Shown here: positions 1,006 through 35,074 of the stretch, piece by piece | Numbering within the stretch: position 1 is the first letter of the stretch | Layout: each line of letters begins with the position of its first letter | DNA from: Patescibacteria group bacterium | GTDB taxonomy: Bacteria; Patescibacteriota; UBA1384; XYA2-FULL-43-10; 1-14-0-10-43-13 | Assembly: GCA_041671645.1 (NCBI GenBank) | Contig: JBAZBD010000001.1 | Location: forward strand, 173,365 to 237,364 | Direction: 5' to 3' | DNA length: 64,000 nucleotides | Notes under the pieces: model-generated | Databases searched by the model: none | Told to the model about the DNA's origin: nothing | Seen by the model: only the letters and a program-made list of their open reading frames with translations | Made by a program: the position numbers and the translations under genes

Positions 1006-2244
1006 ATGCAACACAACAACCAAAAATACGCCTTTGTGCTTGGTCGTGAGCGCGATTTGTGCTTGACGGAACTCTATGCAGTTCTAGTTCGTTTTGGTTT
1101 TTGTTTTACAGTTCCCAGTGTATATGACAATGTCGCAATCATCAATATTGAAAATGCGAACGAAAGTGATGTGGCGAGCTTGATTGAGAGTCTGGGCGGC
1201 ACGATGAAGATTTTCCGCATGATCGTCCCAGTCGATAAGCAAGTCAAGGACAGAATAATTTCTTATATTACGAGCTCAGAGAGAAGCCAGAAGAAATTCA
1301 ACTATACTATTTCTTCTTACTCACGACTTTTCAATTACAAATCGATCTTTGATCTCGGTCTTTCGATCAAAAAGGAGCTGAAAAAGGAGCTATCCTTGCG
1401 ATTCGTTGAAATTAGAGAGGGCAAGGACGCTTCAAGTATTTTGTCCTTGAAAAATCATTTTGTGGATCAAGGTTTTGAGTTTGGCTTGTTCGAAGCAGAT
1501 CTAGGCATTTTAATCGCTCTCACGGATGCGGAAGAGTGGGGCGAGCGTGATTATGATAAGCCATCTGGCGACAAGAGAAGCGGAATGCTTCCGCCAAAAT
1601 TAGCCAGGATGATGATCAATCTTGCGCTAGGATCGAAGAAACAAGAGGGAAAATCTCTCGTGATTGATCCTTTCTGTGGATCGGGCAATATTCTGATCGA
1701 AGCATTGCTTCTTGGCGCTGACGCGATGGGCTCGGACGTGAGCGAAAAAGCGGTTAATGATTCGATGAACAATATCAAATGGCTTGTTGAAAACCCGAAA
1801 TATAGAGACAAAATTACTGCCAAAAATCCGAAGCCGAAGGTGCATATAGACCAAGCCGATGCTTCCAATGTAGATTTTGCAAAACTACTTTCGACTTTCG
1901 ACTTTCGACTTTCAGACTACAACAGCGTAGCTGTGGTGGCCGAGCCGTTTCTGGGCGAGCCCAAGAAATTTAAACCTAGCTTGAACGCAGTCAAGGGCGA
2001 ATATGCAAAGATTCAGGAATTATACATTGATTTCCTCAAGAATATTCGACAATCAGGGCTTCCAATTAATTCGTTGGTTTTGATTTTTCCACTGGTAGAA
2101 ACGCTCGAAGGCAAGCTCTACAGTCTCTTCGACGCAAGTGTTGACGAAATTGAAAAAATTGGCTATAGTGTACTCACTAAACCACTTGTTTATGGTAGAG
2201 AATACCAGGTTGTGAAGCGAGAGATCGTTTTACTACAGTTTTAA
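1006..2244 (+). CDS. SAM-dependent RNA/DNA methyltransferase (UPF0020/THUMP-type, N6-adenine/N2-guanine MTase-like)
   Basis: Motif I DPFCGSGNILIEA and motif IV-like AEPFLGEP are present. The ORF is intact at 412 aa. Confidence 0.6.
   Translation: MQHNNQKYAFVLGRERDLCLTELYAVLVRFGFCFTVPSVYDNVAIINIENANESDVASLIESLGGTMKIFRMIVPVDKQVKDRIISYITSSERSQKKFNYTISSYSRLFNYKSIFDLGLSIKKELKKELSLRFVEIREGKDASSILSLKNHFVDQGFEFGLFEADLGILIALTDAEEWGERDYDKPSGDKRSGMLPPKLARMMINLALGSKKQEGKSLVIDPFCGSGNILIEALLLGADAMGSDVSEKAVNDSMNNIKWLVENPKYRDKITAKNPKPKVHIDQADASNVDFAKLLSTFDFRLSDYNSVAVVAEPFLGEPKKFKPSLNAVKGEYAKIQELYIDFLKNIRQSGLPINSLVLIFPLVETLEGKLYSLFDASVDEIEKIGYSVLTKPLVYGREYQVVKREIVLLQF
1888..1918. repeat. Heptanucleotide tandem repeat (TCGACTT)x3-4 inside the methyltransferase CDS, in frame
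   Basis: The sequence is tcgactttcgactttcgactttcagact and encodes STFDFRLSDY. Confidence 0.8.
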
Positions 2245-18228: not shown

Positions 18229-18266
18229 TGTGTACATGTTTGGGCTCGCGGATACTTGATCTCTCG

Positions 18267-18298
18267 ACAGTTGTCTATAGAAAATTACAGACAATTGT
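18267..18298 (+). promoter_or_regulatory. Operator-like inverted repeat between the promoter and the RBS
   Basis: ACAGTTGTCT, a 12-nt spacer, AGACAATTGT: 10-bp arms with 1 mismatch. Confidence 0.4.
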
Positions 18299-18312
18299 TC
18301 GGGAGGAGTAGT

Positions 18313-18891
18313 ATGAATCGAAAAAACGACAGCGTAATTTGCTTGTCCGCCATCGCTTTAATTGGGATTGCGGCCACGGCAATTCTGACGGTTGAGAACA
18401 GGAGATTGGCTTCGCTTCTTGAGGAAGCGGCGACCGATCATCTGACCGGTATACCCACCAGAAGACACCTGATGAGAAGTCTCAAAAGGTTGGAAATGGG
18501 CGGCGTTCGTTCTCTGCCGCTGGCAGTTCTGGTCATCGATGCCAACGGTCTCAAGGAGACCAACGATTTGCATGGTCACAAAGCGGGAGATAGACTCCTG
18601 CAGGTGATAGCAGAGATAATTATTGAAAATGTCCGCCCCAATGACATTTTCGGCCGATTGGGCGGCGATGAATTTATCATCGTTCTGCCAAATACTGATT
18701 TGGATGGTGCTGAGCTTGTAGCCAAGAGGTTGCAAACAGCTTGCGCGTCTTCCTATTTCAAGTATCCCGTATCGGTTTCGATTGGGATTGCGGTTAGGGA
18801 AGATTTATCCAAACCGATTGATAAAATCATTCATGAGGCCGACCAAGAAATGTACAAGGCGAAAGCCGCGTACAAGAAGGCTCATGTTTGA
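18313..18891 (+). CDS. GGDEF-domain diguanylate cyclase with an N-terminal TM helix; the ORF could extend to 18256
   Basis: RLGGDEFIIVL gives the GGDEF motif, DANGLKETNDLHGHKAGD is typical, and the TM segment is ICLSAIALIGIAATAIL. Confidence 0.8.
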   Translation: MNRKNDSVICLSAIALIGIAATAILTVENRRLASLLEEAATDHLTGIPTRRHLMRSLKRLEMGGVRSLPLAVLVIDANGLKETNDLHGHKAGDRLLQVIAEIIIENVRPNDIFGRLGGDEFIIVLPNTDLDGAELVAKRLQTACASSYFKYPVSVSIGIAVREDLSKPIDKIIHEADQEMYKAKAAYKKAHV

Positions 18892-18912
18892 ACTAAATTT
18901 ACTGGTGGCACC

Positions 18913-18955
18913 TCGATATATATCGGAGTGCCACATTTTATTTGTAGAAACATTT
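18913..18955 (+). terminator. Rho-independent terminator
   Basis: The stem GTGGCAC...GTGCCAC has an inner CTCGATATATATCGGAG and is followed by attttattt. Confidence 0.7.
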
Positions 18956-18976: not shown

Positions 18977-20257
18977 ATGTGTCTCACAATTCCAGGAAAA
19001 ATTGAATCGATAGATGACGTGGGTATCGCCACCGTATTATCATCCCGCGAAAAGGCTCAGATTGACCTCTCGCTTGTTTCTGACGTTTACCCCGGTGATT
19101 GGATACTTTATGCATCAAACAGGGCTGTCAAGGCAATCTCGGAGGAAGATGCCAAGGAGATCATAGCCTTGCTCGAAGACAATTATAGCCAGGTCGACGT
19201 TAGCCGTTTGCCCCTGCAGTTCAAGAAAATTATATACAAAGTTCGCTCGGGCAATTCTGATTTGACCAAGGACGAGATAGTTTATCTTTTGAACCTCAAA
19301 GGCAAGAATAACCTCGAAACTTTGTATGCCGAAGCCAATACTCTACGCAAAGACAGGATCAAGGATTTCGTTTGCATCCATGGCATTATTGAGTTCTCAA
19401 ATTATTGCAAAAATCTCTGCCTCTATTGTGGCATCCGAAAAGGTAATAAGGTCGAGCGATATCGGATGAAACGAGAAGAGATTGTTAAAGCTGCGAGGCA
19501 GGCAGTTGACGAGGAGGGCTACAAGCTCCTGGTCCTGCAAAGTGGGGAAGACGATGAGTATTCTGATGACGATTTGATCAAAATTGTAGCGGAAATCAAG
19601 AAAGAACTGCGAGTCTTTGTCTTTCTTTCTGTCGGCGAGAGAAGTATTAATTTTTACAAAAAAGCTTATGAAGCTGGGGCGTCTGGGGCTCTGATTCGAT
19701 TCGAAACCTCGGACCCCGAATTTTATTCAGAATTACGCCCGGGCCACAAATTGGACGACCGATTAAAATTAATCAAACAGATGACGGAGCTCGGCTACTA
19801 CATGGCGACAGGCAATATCGTCGGCTTGCCAGGGCAAAGTCTTGAAAGTCTGGCAGACGATTTGCTTTTGATCAAAAAGTTAAATGCGCCAATGATCAGC
19901 TCTGGCCCGTGGCTCCCAGCCAAAGGAACGCCGCTGGTGCAAGTCGAAAGTCGAAAGTCGAAAGTCGAAAGTTTGGAAATTATGCTGAAGTATATTGCAG
20001 TTGCTAGGTTCTTGATGCCGGAGGCGAAGATTCCGGTCACGACAGCGCTTGAGACGCTTGACCCAGAGAACGGACGACACAAGGGACTTTTGGCGGGTGC
20101 CAGCGCTCTAATGTTTAGCCTGACCCCAGAGAAATATGCGGGCGATTATTCTATCTATGACAACAAATATCGCGAGCGTGAGAAGGTCTGGCAGAAATAT
20201 GGCTTGTTTAAGGGTGAAGAGAGCTACGAAATGTTGGCTGATAGGCTTAAGGTTTGA
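18977..20257 (+). CDS. Fusion protein: N-terminal HypC/HupF-like domain plus a HydE/PylB/BioB-family radical SAM domain
   Basis: The N-terminus MCLTIPGKIESIDD...IDLSLV...GDWILY matches the HypC signature MC(L/I)x(I/V)PG. After that comes IIEFSNYCKNLCLYCGIRKGNKVERYRM (CxxxCxxC) with HydE-like motifs VLQSGED and GNIVGLPGQS. Confidence 0.75.
   Translation: MCLTIPGKIESIDDVGIATVLSSREKAQIDLSLVSDVYPGDWILYASNRAVKAISEEDAKEIIALLEDNYSQVDVSRLPLQFKKIIYKVRSGNSDLTKDEIVYLLNLKGKNNLETLYAEANTLRKDRIKDFVCIHGIIEFSNYCKNLCLYCGIRKGNKVERYRMKREEIVKAARQAVDEEGYKLLVLQSGEDDEYSDDDLIKIVAEIKKELRVFVFLSVGERSINFYKKAYEAGASGALIRFETSDPEFYSELRPGHKLDDRLKLIKQMTELGYYMATGNIVGLPGQSLESLADDLLLIKKLNAPMISSGPWLPAKGTPLVQVESRKSKVESLEIMLKYIAVARFLMPEAKIPVTTALETLDPENGRHKGLLAGASALMFSLTPEKYAGDYSIYDNKYREREKVWQKYGLFKGEESYEMLADRLKV
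19943..19972. repeat. Heptanucleotide tandem repeat (GTCGAAA)x4, in frame in the radical SAM CDS
   Basis: gtcgaaagtcgaaagtcgaaagtcgaaagt encodes VESRKSKVES. It is the reverse-complement unit of the repeat at 1888-1918. Confidence 0.8.
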
Positions 20258-23343: not shown

Positions 23344-23739
23344 ATGGCAGAGTTAACAAAAGTTTTATTGGCCGATGATGACGCAATCTTGCACGAAATG
23401 TACGCTGAGAGGCTTCGGGCTGAGGGTTTCAACATTATTTCCGCCTACGACGGCGAGGAAGCGCTCGAGAAATTCAATGCCGAGAAGCCGGCTCTTCTCG
23501 TTCTCGATATTATGATGCCAAAAATGAATGGCATTGATGTCATGAAGAAAATCAGGGAGGGAGACATCAATCCAAACACCCCAATCATCCTTCTGACCGC
23601 GCTGGTCCAAGAGATCAACAAAATCAAAAAGATGATGAAAGAGGGCGATCAATATCTCATCAAAAGCGAGATCGTCCCAGCTAATCTGATCGAAGCAATC
23701 AAATCTACTCTCAAGAAAAGTTCAGCTAGCGCCGCCTAA
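23344..23739 (+). CDS. Single-domain CheY-like response regulator receiver
   Basis: KVLLADDDAILHEMY...LLVLDIMMPKMNG...IILLTAL. The conserved Asp residues and the T/K positions are present. Confidence 0.8.
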   Translation: MAELTKVLLADDDAILHEMYAERLRAEGFNIISAYDGEEALEKFNAEKPALLVLDIMMPKMNGIDVMKKIREGDINPNTPIILLTALVQEINKIKKMMKEGDQYLIKSEIVPANLIEAIKSTLKKSSASAA

Positions 23740-25789
23740 GAGTCTTGTATAGTTCTTCCAGAGTTGTCTGGCCTCGAAGTACCTTGTCGAGGCCATCTTC
23801 TCGTATTGTCGAGAGCTCATTGTATCTGAGTACCTCGTCATAATCGTCTGGCTCACCAGAGAGAGTTTGTTTGACGATATTGTGATTGATTTTAACCACT
23901 TCATGTAGGGGGATCTGACCTTTAAATCCGGATTCTGCACAAGCGCTGCAACCGATAGGTAGCCAGATTTTCTGAGCAGTTTTACCTAGGGTTAATTCTT
24001 TTTCAATATAATTTTTGAGCTTGTCTTCTAATGGACGATCCATCTCTTTTTTGCATTTATCACAAATACGGCGGGAGAGTTTCTCAAAAATAACGAGTTT
24101 TAGCAATTCGGAAATCTTGGTCTCGCTGATGCCCCAATCGTAGAGTCTCTTGATCGTCTCTGCGACGGAGGAGCCGGCCATCGAGATGATCAGGAAATGG
24201 CCGCTGGCTGCCAACTCAAAGGCTTTCTGGACCGTTTCGCGGCTATCAGCCCCGGTGATACCGATAACATCAGGATCGAGTTTCTCGACCTGGCTCATGG
24301 CAGTTTCTCTGTCGGCTGGATTCGAAATGCTGGTTTGATTGATTCCCGGAAGGCGGAATTTGACCGGATTCTCAAGTGTCACAATGTTGATTCCTTCCGA
24401 ATAGACCTGATCGATCAGGGCGTAGAAAAGTGTGCTCTTGCCAGACTCGCTAGGTCCAGTGATCATAATAATACCGCTTCTATCGATGCATGCCTCTGTG
24501 ACCAGTTTGAAATTTTTGTCTGAAAATTCTAATTCCCCCAGGTTCTTGAGGGCGGTCAATTTGTTGGTCAGTTTCATTGTAATCTTGAGGCCATCGAGGA
24601 CAGGAAAAGTAGCGAGACTATATTCGTAGGTCTCGTTTTCGATGTTTATCTTGAGTTTGCCAGTTTGTGGCTTGGTCTGGTCATCGTCGAGGGAGGAAAT
24701 CAGAGAAAAAGCACGAACCAGGAGATTGCCCATCGCTTTGGGCAGGGAGGTCCGCTTCTGCAGAAGGCCGTCGATCCTGAATCGCATTGTAATCTCCTCT
24801 TTTGACGGATCAAAATGAATGTCGGTGGCATTGTCTCTGACCGATTTTTTGATCAGATTCAGTACTGTCCTGACGACTGGGGCAACCTTGCCTTCGTTGC
24901 TAAGAGAGCTAATAAATTCAGGAGTTGGCTCGACGGCAACGATCAGGTTGCCCTCTCTCAGCCTGGCATATTGAGCCAAGACATGTGCCATACCGGTTTC
25001 GTCGGCCAATTTGATCTCGACTGTGCGCCCAGTAACCTTCTCAAGCAAATGGATCACTTCGTCGTCACCAGCGTCCAACATCGCCACGACCAAGACATTG
25101 TCTTCGTCTTCAATAGCTACGACGCGGTGGTTTTTGGCAAATGACTCAGGGATGATAGCCAGGATGGAGGAAGGAATTGTGAAGTGGCTGAGGTCGACGA
25201 AAGGAATTTTGTTTTTCTTGTCCTTGTGGGAAATGGGTGCGACAAAATCAGCGTCATCTTTCTCCACTGGCTCAATTGTTTTGATCTTGATAACTTCGGC
25301 TTTCTCTCTTGGCGCTTCCTCGACTTTGACCTCTACTTCGGGCGCTTCAACCTTCTCGCCAATTATCTTGATCGGGATATCGACTTCTTCATCTTCGTTG
25401 GTCTTGATCTTTTCTGGGGGGATATCGATCTCTTCTCCCTTGGATTCAGATTTGTCGCCATGCATTTTCTTGAACGAGCCGTATGAAGTGCAATTTTCGA
25501 GATTCAAGCCTCTATTGACCGCTTCTTTGATGTTATCCGCTGGCATCCATTTGACCACGTCGGTAGGAAGCATAATCATCTTTTTGGCTGCGCCAAGCTT
25601 GGGGTGGAGGATAGTTTTGGAGGGGTAATGGACAGTGTAGAAACTTCCGAAATTGGAATAGATGACCTTCTCGCCTTTTTCCAATGTCTCAGAAACGGTG
25701 TCAGCAAAAGCAATCGCTAATTTCAGCGCCTTCTTGATGTTGAGGTTTGTTTTTTTGGCGATCTCTCTCGCCAAATCTTCCCGTGTCAT
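23726..25789 (-). CDS. PilB/GspE-family type IV pilus / T2SS ATPase with an N-terminal HU/IHF-like (DNABII) domain; the ORF could extend to 25879
   Basis: The Walker A is ITGPSESGKSTLFYAL. There is a GspE_N-like region (IPSSILAIIPESFAKNHRVVAI...LVVAM) and a C-terminal CxxC...CxxC. The N-terminal ~90 aa (MTREDLAREIAKKTNLNIKKALKLAIAFADTVSETLEKGEKVIYSNFGSFYTVHY...) fits the HU fold pattern. A TATAAT box and the RBS aaggatggg precede the ATG at 25789. Confidence 0.85.
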   Translation of the reverse strand: MTREDLAREIAKKTNLNIKKALKLAIAFADTVSETLEKGEKVIYSNFGSFYTVHYPSKTILHPKLGAAKKMIMLPTDVVKWMPADNIKEAVNRGLNLENCTSYGSFKKMHGDKSESKGEEIDIPPEKIKTNEDEEVDIPIKIIGEKVEAPEVEVKVEEAPREKAEVIKIKTIEPVEKDDADFVAPISHKDKKNKIPFVDLSHFTIPSSILAIIPESFAKNHRVVAIEDEDNVLVVAMLDAGDDEVIHLLEKVTGRTVEIKLADETGMAHVLAQYARLREGNLIVAVEPTPEFISSLSNEGKVAPVVRTVLNLIKKSVRDNATDIHFDPSKEEITMRFRIDGLLQKRTSLPKAMGNLLVRAFSLISSLDDDQTKPQTGKLKINIENETYEYSLATFPVLDGLKITMKLTNKLTALKNLGELEFSDKNFKLVTEACIDRSGIIMITGPSESGKSTLFYALIDQVYSEGINIVTLENPVKFRLPGINQTSISNPADRETAMSQVEKLDPDVIGITGADSRETVQKAFELAASGHFLIISMAGSSVAETIKRLYDWGISETKISELLKLVIFEKLSRRICDKCKKEMDRPLEDKLKNYIEKELTLGKTAQKIWLPIGCSACAESGFKGQIPLHEVVKINHNIVKQTLSGEPDDYDEVLRYNELSTIREDGLDKVLRGQTTLEELYKTLRRR

Positions 25790-25950
25790 GTCTGCCCATC
25801 CTTTGAAAACATTATATCTTTTTCTGCCAGAAAAAGGCAAATAGATAGGGAAAAAAGGGGGAATTTGAGCGAGCGTCAAGCTTGATTACATTGCCTCAGA
25901 TTGACGTTGGCTCGCAAAAGCTGTACTTATTATTGCAGGGGGTTCCAGCT

Positions 25951-30855: not shown

Positions 30856-31872
30856 ATGGAAGTCAGAATGCAGAATGATCTATACAAATACTTAGAGAAT
30901 TTAACACCGCTTCGACAAAAGCAATTGCGGCACGCTGTTTTTGTCAATTTAATTGACAACGCTGAGGGCTTAACTACATTTTCCAAAATCGAGCGAGAGA
31001 AAATCAAAGAAGAATTCGTTTTCACTCCTTTTGAAGTTCTAGAGGAACAAACTTCTCGCGATGGCTCGACCAAGTGGGCGTTCAAACTAGCGGACGGTAA
31101 AGTGATCGAAACAGTGCTGATGGAATTTCATGACGGTCGCAACACCGTCTGCGTCTCTTCTCAGGTTGGCTGTCCGTCTGGTTGTCTCTTCTGCGCTACT
31201 GGTCAGCTTGGGTTTATCCGAAATTTGTCTAGTTGGGAAATACTGAGTCAAGCTCTATACGCCGGTAGGAAATTGAAAGCTCAGGACAAGAAGATTACCA
31301 ATATCGTATTTATGGGTATGGGCGAGCCACTTCTGAATTGGGACAACGTCTTGCCTGCGATCAAAGAATTGAATGACCCAGATTATTTCAATCTTGGCAG
31401 ACGTCACATGACTCTCTCGACCTGCGGACCCATCGCGGGGTTGGAGAAATTTATCGAAGCCGAGACCGGCGTGACTTTGGCTATCAGTTTGCATGCACCA
31501 AACCAAATTTTGAGGGAAAAGCTGATGCCGATCGCCAGAAGCAATAAGCTTCCAGATCTCGTAAATATACTTGACAAGTATGTCCGCTCGACACACAAGC
31601 GAGTGAGCTATGAATATCTCTTGCTGGACGGCGTGAATGACACTGATCAGTCTGCGATTGAATTGGCAAATTTGCTCAAAGGCAAGCTAGCTTTTGTAAA
31701 TCTGATAGTCTTCAACCCGATTGAAAAGTCCGCCTTTTCTCCCAGCAAACGCGACCGGGTGGATCGATTTCGAGAGATACTGGAGCGGAATCATATCGAA
31801 GTGACAGTGCGAGTCAGCCTAGGCGATGAAATATCAGCTGCCTGCGGCCAACTGGCCGGCGAGAAAAGTTAA
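30856..31872 (+). CDS. rlmN: 23S rRNA/tRNA m2A methyltransferase (radical SAM), RlmN/Cfr family
   Basis: CVSSQVGCPSGCLFCATGQLGF is the RlmN CxxxCxxC motif. Confidence 0.9.
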   Translation: MEVRMQNDLYKYLENLTPLRQKQLRHAVFVNLIDNAEGLTTFSKIEREKIKEEFVFTPFEVLEEQTSRDGSTKWAFKLADGKVIETVLMEFHDGRNTVCVSSQVGCPSGCLFCATGQLGFIRNLSSWEILSQALYAGRKLKAQDKKITNIVFMGMGEPLLNWDNVLPAIKELNDPDYFNLGRRHMTLSTCGPIAGLEKFIEAETGVTLAISLHAPNQILREKLMPIARSNKLPDLVNILDKYVRSTHKRVSYEYLLLDGVNDTDQSAIELANLLKGKLAFVNLIVFNPIEKSAFSPSKRDRVDRFREILERNHIEVTVRVSLGDEISAACGQLAGEKS

Positions 31873-33667: not shown

Positions 33668-35074
33668 ATGTCATTGTATAAGTTTGATTTCCCCAAAGGG
33701 GGAAAAGTCATCGAGGGTAAGACGAAGGCTCTTTACGAAGTGCTGGATTATCCCGGATTATTGATCGCTGAGTATAAGTCAGACATTACTGCGTTTGACG
33801 ATCCACGTTTTACAACGGTGTTTGGCACCAAAGCTCGCGATTCCAATGCAGTGACCTGCAGGATCTTCGAACTTTTGCAACAAGCCGGCTTGCCGGTTGC
33901 CTATCTTGGAAAGTTGTCAGAGACAGAATTTGTTGCTCCGCGTGTCCAGATGGCGCCGGTGGAACTCATCACCCGTCGCTTTGTTCACCCCAAGGGCAGC
34001 ATTCGGAAACGTCGACCCGAGTTGCCACCGCATTATCGCTTTGGCGAGCTGACATTCGAAGTTTGTCTGAAGACGCATAATGGTGGCAAGTATACCAACA
34101 TTTTTGGCGCAGAGGTCGATCTGGCCCTGCCGCGTGTCGATGACAAACCTACTGATGATCCGATGGTGTTAAACCCACTTGCTGACGAGTGGAAACTGAT
34201 TGGCAAGAGCCCGCTCTATGATCCAGAGGTCATAGCTACTGTCAAACGCGACGAAGTTTTGCACGGCGTCGACGAGATTACAGAATACCGCCGTTTACTC
34301 CATGCTGCCTTCCTGATCATCGAAGCATTCTTCAAATTGATCGGATGGACGACTTATGACCTTAAGGTCGAGTGCGGAAGACTGAAAGAAGACTTTCAGC
34401 CGGAGGTCGGTCCGCTCCTAAAAGCGGGGACGATCGTCATCGCTGATGTAATCGACCATGACTCCTGGAGAGTATTGGACGAATCTGGCCGTGAAATGTC
34501 TAAGCAAGTTTTTCGTGACATGATCTTGGCTGGCAAACTGGATCAGGATGAGATCGCCCAGATCTACTCTTCCGTCGTCAGAGCCGTCGAGAACTTTCGG
34601 GTTCAAGAACAGGCGCTCGTGCTCTGGCGCGGCTCGGAGGATGATAATTTTCCGGATCTTCAACTCAATGGATCGATGGGCCGGCTCGATCTGAACAATT
34701 TGCCTGGTATCAAGGTAGAACGCATCACCGGCTCCGGTCACAAGCAGACTATAGCTTGTCTGGATCGTCTAAACGCGTTACAGGCACGCTACAAGTATGG
34801 TGCGATTATTGTCGAGGTCGGTCGTAGCAACGGTCTCGGCCCGACACTGGCTGCTCACACAATCTGGCCTGTCATTTCCCGGCCCGCTTCACTTGAGAAG
34901 TGCCCCGGAGATATCTGGAGCAACCTGCGTTGTCCAAGCAACGATCCGATGGCGACAATCATCGACAAGGGGAATGCGGTTCTTTTCGCCCTCCGGCAGC
35001 TGGCACCGTTGAATCCCTACGTCGCCGCCTGGCTCCAATACGGCGTAGAGCAACTCGAAGCGACGCCAGTATAA
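33668..35074 (+). CDS. purC: Bifunctional SAICAR synthetase (PurC) plus AIR carboxylase/mutase-like (PurE-like) fusion, PAICS-like
   Basis: The N-terminus (GKTKALYEV...LLIAEYKSDITAFD...GTKARDSN and VECGRLKEDF...IVIADVIDHDSWR) matches PurC. The C-terminus (LVLWRGSEDD...SGHKQT...GRSNGLGPTLAAHTIWPVISRP...NAVLFALRQLA) follows the PurE pattern. The RBS is aaaggagg. Confidence 0.75.
   Translation: MSLYKFDFPKGGKVIEGKTKALYEVLDYPGLLIAEYKSDITAFDDPRFTTVFGTKARDSNAVTCRIFELLQQAGLPVAYLGKLSETEFVAPRVQMAPVELITRRFVHPKGSIRKRRPELPPHYRFGELTFEVCLKTHNGGKYTNIFGAEVDLALPRVDDKPTDDPMVLNPLADEWKLIGKSPLYDPEVIATVKRDEVLHGVDEITEYRRLLHAAFLIIEAFFKLIGWTTYDLKVECGRLKEDFQPEVGPLLKAGTIVIADVIDHDSWRVLDESGREMSKQVFRDMILAGKLDQDEIAQIYSSVVRAVENFRVQEQALVLWRGSEDDNFPDLQLNGSMGRLDLNNLPGIKVERITGSGHKQTIACLDRLNALQARYKYGAIIVEVGRSNGLGPTLAAHTIWPVISRPASLEKCPGDIWSNLRCPSNDPMATIIDKGNAVLFALRQLAPLNPYVAAWLQYGVEQLEATPV

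Follow-up and report, generated by a model that had tools for sequence, protein, structure and literature searches.

A conserved fusion of HypC and HydE domains from Patescibacteria and its association with HydG and [NiFe]-hydrogenase genes

[FeFe]-hydrogenases are matured by the HydE, HydF, and HydG set of proteins, which is unrelated to the set that matures [NiFe]-hydrogenases. In Chlamydomonas and other green algae, a HydEF fusion joins HydE to HydF, which serves as the scaffold for the [2Fe] unit of [FeFe]-hydrogenase, and HydE-like enzymes are also used outside [FeFe] maturation, as exemplified by HmdB (TIGR03957) in the biosynthesis of the [Fe]-hydrogenase cofactor. The gene considered here lies in a 64-kb window of DNA from a Patescibacteria group bacterium (the window being the whole stretch that was analyzed), for which a preliminary description had proposed that a single open reading frame (ORF) fuses an N-terminal HypC-type domain to a radical S-adenosylmethionine (SAM) enzyme of the HydE, PylB, and BioB clade. 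We re-examined this ORF and rate the encoded protein as a hybrid that draws on both known systems for maturing hydrogenases, a notable arrangement in that one conserved protein physically joins components of both. Genomic context and homology, from which all of the support is drawn, incline us modestly toward reading it as a bifunctional maturase in which a HypC-tethered HydE would act with HydG in assembling the Fe ligands of [NiFe]-hydrogenases. The preliminary description had also called the architecture unfamiliar, which is accurate insofar as we found no paper describing it, but the architecture itself is already present in public databases. More broadly, no description of the fusion, or of HydG or HydE in [NiFe] clusters, was found in the literature searched, subscription-only papers lying mostly outside that search, and a 2025 review of [NiFe] cofactor biosynthesis leaves HydG and radical-SAM enzymes unmentioned and treats the anaerobic source of CO as the key open question (PMC12134894).

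The gene is complete at 18977..20257 on the + strand, with an ATG start, an N-terminus of MCLTIPGKI, no in-frame start upstream of this ATG, and 426 codons followed by a stop. Its product is identical to GenBank MFA6963269.1, which automatic annotation names 'HydE' (NCBI) or 'biotin synthase' (JGI). Residues 1-66 (18977..19174, +) constitute a HypC/HupF domain with an M-C-L-T-I-P N-terminus, and the proposal of an N-terminal HypC-type domain carrying Cys2 is borne out by three concordant matches: Pfam HupF_HypC over residues 1-66 (53.7 bits, gathering threshold 28.5), NCBIfam TIGR00074 over residues 1-68, albeit by a narrow margin (49.0 versus 48.0), and the Thermococcus kodakarensis HypC sequence in the PDB (2z1c; 4e-6 over residues 1-64). 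A linker at residues 67-92 (19175..19252, +), helical in part over residues 80-90, is followed in relatives by a hypervariable site of low-complexity insertion. It leads into a HydE-type radical-SAM TIM barrel at residues 93-399 (19253..20173, +), which is recognized by NCBIfam, PDB sequence, and structure matches. These comprise the HydE equivalog TIGR03956, again by a narrow margin (residues 93-399; 260.3 bits versus a cutoff of 254.6), and Thermotoga maritima HydE (TmHydE; 7e-63 over residues 95-402), alongside Pfam Radical_SAM on residues 138-297 (68.6 bits) and a marginal BATS match on residues 314-381 (22.3 versus 22.2). The CX3CX2C motif for the radical-SAM [4Fe-4S] cluster, C144/C148/C151 (19406..19429, +), is invariant in every aligned relative, and the protein ends in a family-conserved, Cys-free tail at residues 400-426 (EKVWQKYGLFKGEESYEML...; 20174..20254, +), standing where TmHydE has its Cys-containing auxiliary-cluster tail. 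Of the enzymes to which the radical-SAM part had been likened, HydE is upheld by the TIGR03956 score, while PylB (159.5 bits versus a cutoff of 348.2) and BioB (91.1 versus 225) fall far short; ThiH and HydG were likewise rejected with NCBIfam scores far under their cutoffs.

An AlphaFold2 (AF2) model of the fusion, based on an alignment of 30 relatives, has a predicted local distance difference test (pLDDT) score of 89 and a predicted template modeling (pTM) score of 0.89, and consists of a small barrel with a helix followed by the TIM barrel. The HypC part (block pLDDT 73-92) has strands at residues 5-12, 17-21, 26-30, 42-46, and 49-54 and a helix at 56-66. Foldseek searches with this model returned TmHydE structures as the best PDB matches, including complex-B-bound forms (E ~1e-31, target-normalized TM-score 0.85-0.88).

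The resemblance to TmHydE (PDB 3CIW, 3IIZ, 7O1O, 8QMK) covers the fold, the CX3CX2C motif, eight pocket residues, and the partnership with HydG described below. When TmHydE positions were transferred through the PDB sequence alignment, M224, M291, K309, R159, E161, L157, Q107, and T269 corresponded to M306, M379, K397, R241, E243, L239, Q188, and T356 of the fusion, and each of the eight is kept in 71-78 of the ~76 fusion proteins in which conservation was counted. In TmHydE, M224 and M291 hold Fe(I) intermediates and K309 takes part in the radical relay (PMC11826987). By these residues, the domain looks like that of a working HydE with HydE's substrate, and because the pocket is conserved, it may be expected to process the synthon made by HydG. 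Unlike TmHydE, the fusion has the added N-terminal HypC domain and linker, hypervariable loop insertions, a location in [NiFe] operons with neither HydF nor HydA in the neighborhoods examined, and a conserved tail of its own that contains none of the auxiliary-cluster cysteines in residues 400-426. One subset of HydE proteins also lacks the auxiliary C-terminal cluster (PMC10114646).

The N-terminal domain has, in common with HypC/HybG/HupF proteins (E. coli HypC; T. kodakarensis HypC, 2Z1C), the M-C-x-x-x-P N-terminus with Cys2, a length of ~66 residues, and an OB-like five-stranded barrel with a helix, and in relatives, the fusion gene likewise adjoins [NiFe] structural genes and those for HypA and HypB. 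Of 74 complete fusion N-termini, 73 have Cys2 and 73 have Pro6. One departure is that the domain is covalently joined to a radical-SAM enzyme, whereas HypC docks on HypD, and no HypD, HypE, or HypF is encoded within 10 kb of the fusion in 86 loci. The algal HydEF protein provides a precedent for a HydE fused to the carrier or scaffold that acts after it, but in the present family HydE is fused to HypC, which carries Fe(CN)2CO for [NiFe]-hydrogenase, and some genomes add HydG to the fusion. HmdB illustrates the use of HydE-like chemistry beyond [FeFe] maturation; by score, the fusion is no HmdB (68.6 bits versus a cutoff of 320.9).

It is clear that the fusion is not peculiar to this assembly. 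A search of 5.8 billion proteins found more than 110 protein clusters at 50-82% identity that bear both Pfam domains, and a locus scan of GTDB species representatives yielded 306 relatives confirmed by tblastn, among which the query was matched from residue 1 or 2 to about residue 424 in 77 of the 80 best loci, so that the full-length fusion is present in at least 77 species-representative genomes. Within the Patescibacteria, the hosts belong to many lineages, among them Berkel-, Moran-, Jorgensen-, Falkow-, Buchanan-, and Peregrinibacteria; beyond them, they include anammox Planctomycetota (Kuenenia, Brocadiaceae, Wunengus), Methylomirabilis, Thermodesulfobacteriota, and Syntrophales. The preliminary description had raised the concern of a frameshift or assembly error and asked whether relatives share the fusion. 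A 7-nt repeat within the gene could in principle promote slippage, and otherwise the suspicion that a frameshift, misassembly, or miscalled start has joined two genes is a priori only. Full-length conservation across many phyla, as one continuous ORF in all of these clusters and genomes from independent assemblies, rules this out for practical purposes, and the linker is conserved and the AF2 model confident over both domains. In one sister genome (L007), the fusion protein (P0062, 405 amino acids) had appeared truncated, which reflects start-codon calling, as an intact HypC sequence precedes it in the same frame (ICLTIPGK...); the apparent start codon there (L007 10001-10003) is neither ATG, GTG, nor TTG, with the result that gene callers miss the HypC domain.

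In a neighbor-joining tree of the HydE domain, computed without bootstrap, the fusions all group together, apart from the canonical HydE representatives, which points to a single origin of the fusion. Clustering at 50% gave ~20 representatives that are full-length fusions, followed by canonical HydE proteins (~340-370 amino acids) at 37-47% identity. Two proteins extend the architecture further: P0361 (881 amino acids) and P0368 (906 amino acids) are HypC-HydE-HydG triple fusions, with HydE scores of 348-371 bits and both the HydE and HydG cutoffs passed in each, while TIGR00074 is passed by P0361 (50.7) and narrowly missed by P0368 (45.8 versus 48). Such triple fusions are Rosetta-stone evidence for the reading of the HypC-tethered HydE as a partner of HydG in [NiFe] maturation. 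An 881-amino-acid ORF from Falkowbacteria (L072) was grouped with the triple fusions by size and clustering only.

Gene neighborhoods link the fusion to [NiFe]-hydrogenases and alter how it is to be read. ORFs were called and clustered in the 80 best GTDB loci (±10 kb) and in four earlier loci, and neighbors were counted in 82 loci divided into three sets: 63 distant loci (at most 52% identity), 6 of a group termed clade B (59-63%), and 13 of the clade to which the window belongs (64-82%). The commonest neighbors are the large (44 loci) and small (40) subunits of a [NiFe]-hydrogenase, followed in 28 loci each by the gamma and beta subunits of an enzyme that is sulfhydrogenase-like (group-3b-like), and the large subunits near the fusion bear the RxCGxCxxxH and DPCxxCxxH motifs. 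[NiFe] subunit genes are found within 10 kb of the fusion in 47 of the 82 loci overall and in 42 of the 63 distant ones. HydG is encoded immediately downstream of the fusion in at least 42 of the 63 distant loci, or ~45 once three genes missed by the regular expression are added; in most loci at <=52% identity, this gene encodes 455-470 amino acids and begins 0-180 bp after the fusion. The partner is a bona fide HydG by TIGR03955 (506-551 bits versus a cutoff of 312), and the C-terminal CX2CX22C motif for the dangler-iron cluster was present in all four partner sequences read. The typical order in Patescibacteria is beta-gamma-[HypC-HydE]-[HydG]-small-large-HypA. In anammox bacteria it is [HypC-HydE]-[HydG]-HypA-HypB-small-large, an order that mirrors a hyp operon with HypDEF replaced, and the small subunit there is of another type, so the hydrogenase link extends beyond group 3b.

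By tblastn in 86 loci (~1.3 Mb), 10 loci had a match to HypA, 8 to HypB, and 4 to the endopeptidase, and the identities of all three were confirmed in fusion loci. The E. coli sequences of HypD, HypE, and HypF had no match at E <= 1e-3 in the same loci. Motif scans of ~1.3-1.4 Mb around fusions found neither the HypD GPGCPVC motif nor the H-cluster motifs of HydA, and no recurrent HydF-like gene cluster emerged among the clustered ORFs of this region. A 'PRIC*' match resembling a HypE motif in locus L084 was set aside as a chance occurrence outside any ORF. The operon linkage, combined with the lack of HypD, HypE, and HypF nearby, suggests an undescribed route to the Fe-CO/CN center. A further feature of these operons concerns the hydrogenase itself: 34 of the 44 fusion-linked large subunits (L003-L084) end exactly at the His of DPCxxCxxH without a C-terminal extension, and C-terminal processing would therefore be unneeded, in keeping with the observation that most Patescibacteria loci have no endopeptidase gene.

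These neighborhoods also bear on the idea that the protein is a canonical HydE that builds the [2Fe] subcluster, together with HydG and HydF, for an [FeFe]-hydrogenase whose gene lies elsewhere, its HypC domain being accessory and its proximity to [NiFe] genes a matter of co-regulation. Such a role would agree with the passing of the TIGR03956 equivalog cutoff and the matching NCBI name, with the 37-47% identity between the HydE domain and canonical HydE representatives, with the retention of all residues of HydE chemistry, both [2Fe]-dimer methionines included, and with the pairing of a HydG of similar identity with a canonical-length HydE in other metagenome contigs. We nevertheless consider it improbable. 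The fusion and HydG are interleaved among [NiFe] subunit genes, beyond mere proximity, ~1.3-1.4 Mb around the fusions contained no HydA motifs and no recurring HydF-like cluster, the fusions form a separate clade, and PF01455 is named and described solely as a [NiFe]-hydrogenase maturation factor.

Several further observations were made in and around these loci. Genes of ~175 amino acids resembling a protein-lysine N-methyltransferase (64.7 bits, under the cutoff) occur in L047, L049, L061, L062, L066, L070, L071, and L074, flanking the fusion and hydrogenase genes, including in Buchananbacteria, and some loci have two copies. In two Patescibacteria group-3b loci with no HypC-HydE fusion nearby (L088 5792-6640 and L089 12197-13028), a small standalone HypC is followed by a conserved ~205-amino-acid protein that has no Pfam or NCBIfam match. 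In contig LDZU01009629.1 (L164), a HydE of canonical length is encoded with HydG, and the ORF just downstream of HydG is matched best, of the references compared, by E. coli HypE; this may represent another hybrid. HydG proteins P0262, P0271, and P0324, annotated as being from Altiarchaeota and Aenigmarchaeota metagenome-assembled genomes, are 68-69% identical to the HydG of the Patescibacteria operons.

The location of relatives in [NiFe] operons together with HydG, HypA, and HypB, and even as fusions to HydG, is the reason that a hydrogenase role is favored, and a plausible sequence of events can be outlined for it. HydG would make a [Fe(Cys)(CO)2(CN)] synthon from tyrosine, which would be bound by the HydE domain, where a 5'-deoxyadenosyl radical would remove the cysteine to give a reactive Fe-carbonyl-cyanide species. 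The tethered HypC domain, in place of HydF, would capture this Fe-carbonyl-cyanide unit on Cys2 and hand it to the apo large subunit of the [NiFe]-hydrogenase, with HypA and HypB inserting nickel afterwards. HydG and HypC-HydE would thereby stand in for HypD, HypE, and HypF, and an exchange of CO for CN would be required to arrive at Fe(CO)(CN)2. We infer that Fe passes from the HydE pocket to Cys2, that HypDEF are replaced, and that CO is exchanged for CN. The hand-over would be chemically plausible, in that an N-terminal Cys exposed by Met processing should chelate through S and N just as free cysteine does in the HydG synthon.

Alternatively, HydG and HypC-HydE may add a single type of ligand, most plausibly CO, or an iron unit, to a standard HypC/D/E/F pathway encoded elsewhere, as an add-on comparable to HypX in aerobes. 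In ~12 loci, a standalone HypC gene immediately precedes the fusion, hosts with larger genomes, such as the Thermodesulfobacteriota and anammox bacteria, probably have hyp genes elsewhere, and where anaerobes obtain CO for [NiFe] maturation is an open question (PMC12134894), all of which would be compatible with such a supplement. It is an unlikely arrangement all the same, given that HypD, HypE, and HypF were not found within 10 kb in any fusion-seeded locus, while HypA and HypB cluster there, and that HydG makes CN- in addition to CO. A duplicate cyanide pathway would also be unexpected in the very small genomes of Patescibacteria.

Extending the bifunctional maturase to a general scheme, Patescibacteria, anammox bacteria, and several other anaerobes might make the Fe(CO)(CN)2 unit of [NiFe]-hydrogenases by radical-SAM chemistry without HypD, HypE, and HypF, with HydG giving CO and CN- from tyrosine and HydE releasing the Fe unit onto the tethered HypC. 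We offer this broader scheme tentatively, and it could well prove wrong in this full form. If true, it would constitute a third, hybrid maturation pathway that naturally bridges [FeFe] and [NiFe] maturation, and a compact one of two or three genes, or of one triple fusion, with a defined and testable route to CO. The suggestion that HydG supplies certain [NiFe] enzymes with CO and CN ligands derived from tyrosine bears on the evolution of both maturation systems and could ease the heterologous production of [NiFe]-hydrogenases. It would also change the use of maturation genes as markers, the current automatic annotation being '[FeFe] maturase' or 'biotin synthase'.

A number of points weigh against a role for the HypC-tethered HydE and HydG in [NiFe] maturation, some of which concern the chemistry and the hosts and others the window itself. 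The HydG synthon carries two CO and one CN, versus one CO and two CN at the [NiFe] site, and the methionines proposed to support [2Fe] dimerization are conserved, which a mononuclear product would not obviously require. His51 of E. coli HypC is implicated in HypC function; its equivalent in the fusion is Ala46, and the family mainly has A, T, I, or M at this position, His being outside the four commonest residues, while the two sequences read of standalone HypC proteins adjoining the fusion retain the His. Some HydG genes that are equally similar (~72%) to the HydG of the window's clade are paired, in metagenome contigs, with a canonical-length HydE without HypC, and hosts outside the Patescibacteria may well encode HypD, HypE, HypF, HydF, and HydA elsewhere. 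As for the window, tblastn over its 64 kb with HydG, the [NiFe] large, small, gamma, and beta subunits, HypA, and HypB gave no match. HydG, hydrogenase, and Hyp genes are absent within 10 kb of the fusion in 13 of 13 loci of its clade, and among the best 120 relatives of a Patescibacteria [NiFe] large subunit there is none from either the 867,751-bp contig that encodes the window protein or the 798,787-bp contig of another clade member.

The absence of any hydrogenase or other maturation gene from the window had been remarked upon in the preliminary description, and Pfam scans and tblastn agree with it: window ORFs of at least 120 amino acids, scanned up to ~55 kb, comprise housekeeping genes only. 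The other radical-SAM gene of the window (30856-31872) encodes RlmN. Partners of the window fusion, if present, are outside the 64 kb. Loci of the clade share a different synteny, GluRS-GT4 ... fusion-(DJ-1)-c7-response regulator-PilB-DnaX-DnaB, and in the window the fusion lies between a GGDEF gene (18256-18891) upstream and a tRNA-Glu downstream. A stem-loop followed by AUUUUAUUU at 18905..18934 (+; -19 kcal/mol, z = -3.7) is the likely terminator of the GGDEF gene, and with this strong hairpin at the end of the upstream gene, the fusion gene would form its own transcription unit; it is an intact, solitary, and apparently monocistronic copy. One clade member encodes both a fusion (MFA4995941.1) and a HydG (P0279, MFA4996103.1) on its 798,787-bp contig, and this HydG is also solitary. 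No HydG from the 867,751-bp contig was among the best 120 HydG matches, and the window's contig was not among the matches listed in an exact-peptide-pattern metagenome scan with the clade member's HydG.

The window lineage may accordingly have become uncoupled from hydrogenases, its fusion serving another target, such as a non-hydrogenase Fe-CO/CN acceptor or sulfur or thiolation chemistry, or persisting as a decaying remnant. The bare neighborhoods and distinct conserved synteny of all 13 loci, the absence of large subunits from the two near-genome-size contigs among the best 120 matches, and the solitary HydG of the sister genome are what such an uncoupling would leave behind. It does not appear likely, in our assessment. 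The protein is intact in 13 of 13 loci at 64-82% identity with every catalytic and other key residue kept, from which we conclude that it is under selection and not decaying, and the retention of HydG in at least one clade member indicates that the partnership of HydG and HydE persists. The hydrogenase-linked clade B is, moreover, nested within or beside the window clade in the HydE-domain tree; it has a standalone HypC directly upstream in 6 of 6 loci and a convergent hydrogenase operon in 5 of 6, with no adjacent HydG. The large-subunit evidence covers the best 120 matches, and absence is not thereby shown. The role in a different metallocofactor or thiolation pathway that had been suggested for the fusion is thus not favored, as relatives lie in [NiFe] operons, and it would be possible only for the window clade, in which the linkage has been lost.

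The tandem repeat that had been noted within the gene is real. The heptamer (AAGTCGA/GTCGAAA) is present in 4.6 copies at 19941..19972 (+), with a period of 7 and 100% matches, and the reading frame continues through it, encoding VESRKSKVES. This peptide lies in a surface loop at which the fusion family has hypervariable insertions, and it gives an insertion of 5 amino acids relative to TmHydE. The same peptide occurs at the equivalent loop of the fusion P0021 (72% identity), and (GTCGAAA)x3 is also found at 1889-1909 (-) of the window, inside an unrelated methyltransferase-like ORF (1006..2244), where the chance expectation is zero. In the family alignment, low-complexity insertions occur after residue ~95 (up to ~70 amino acids) and in the loop at ~320-335 (up to ~90 amino acids), one example being the 558-amino-acid P0059.

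Two other genes of the window have composite architectures. The PilB-type type IV pilus ATPase at 23726..25879 (-), like that at 14825-16981 of L001, has an HU-like Bac_DNA_binding N-terminus, and this combination of HU, MshEN, and T2SSE is conserved in relatives. The ORF at 33668..35074 (+) contains the SAICAR synthetase (PurC) and AIR carboxylase (PurE) domains in a single reading frame.

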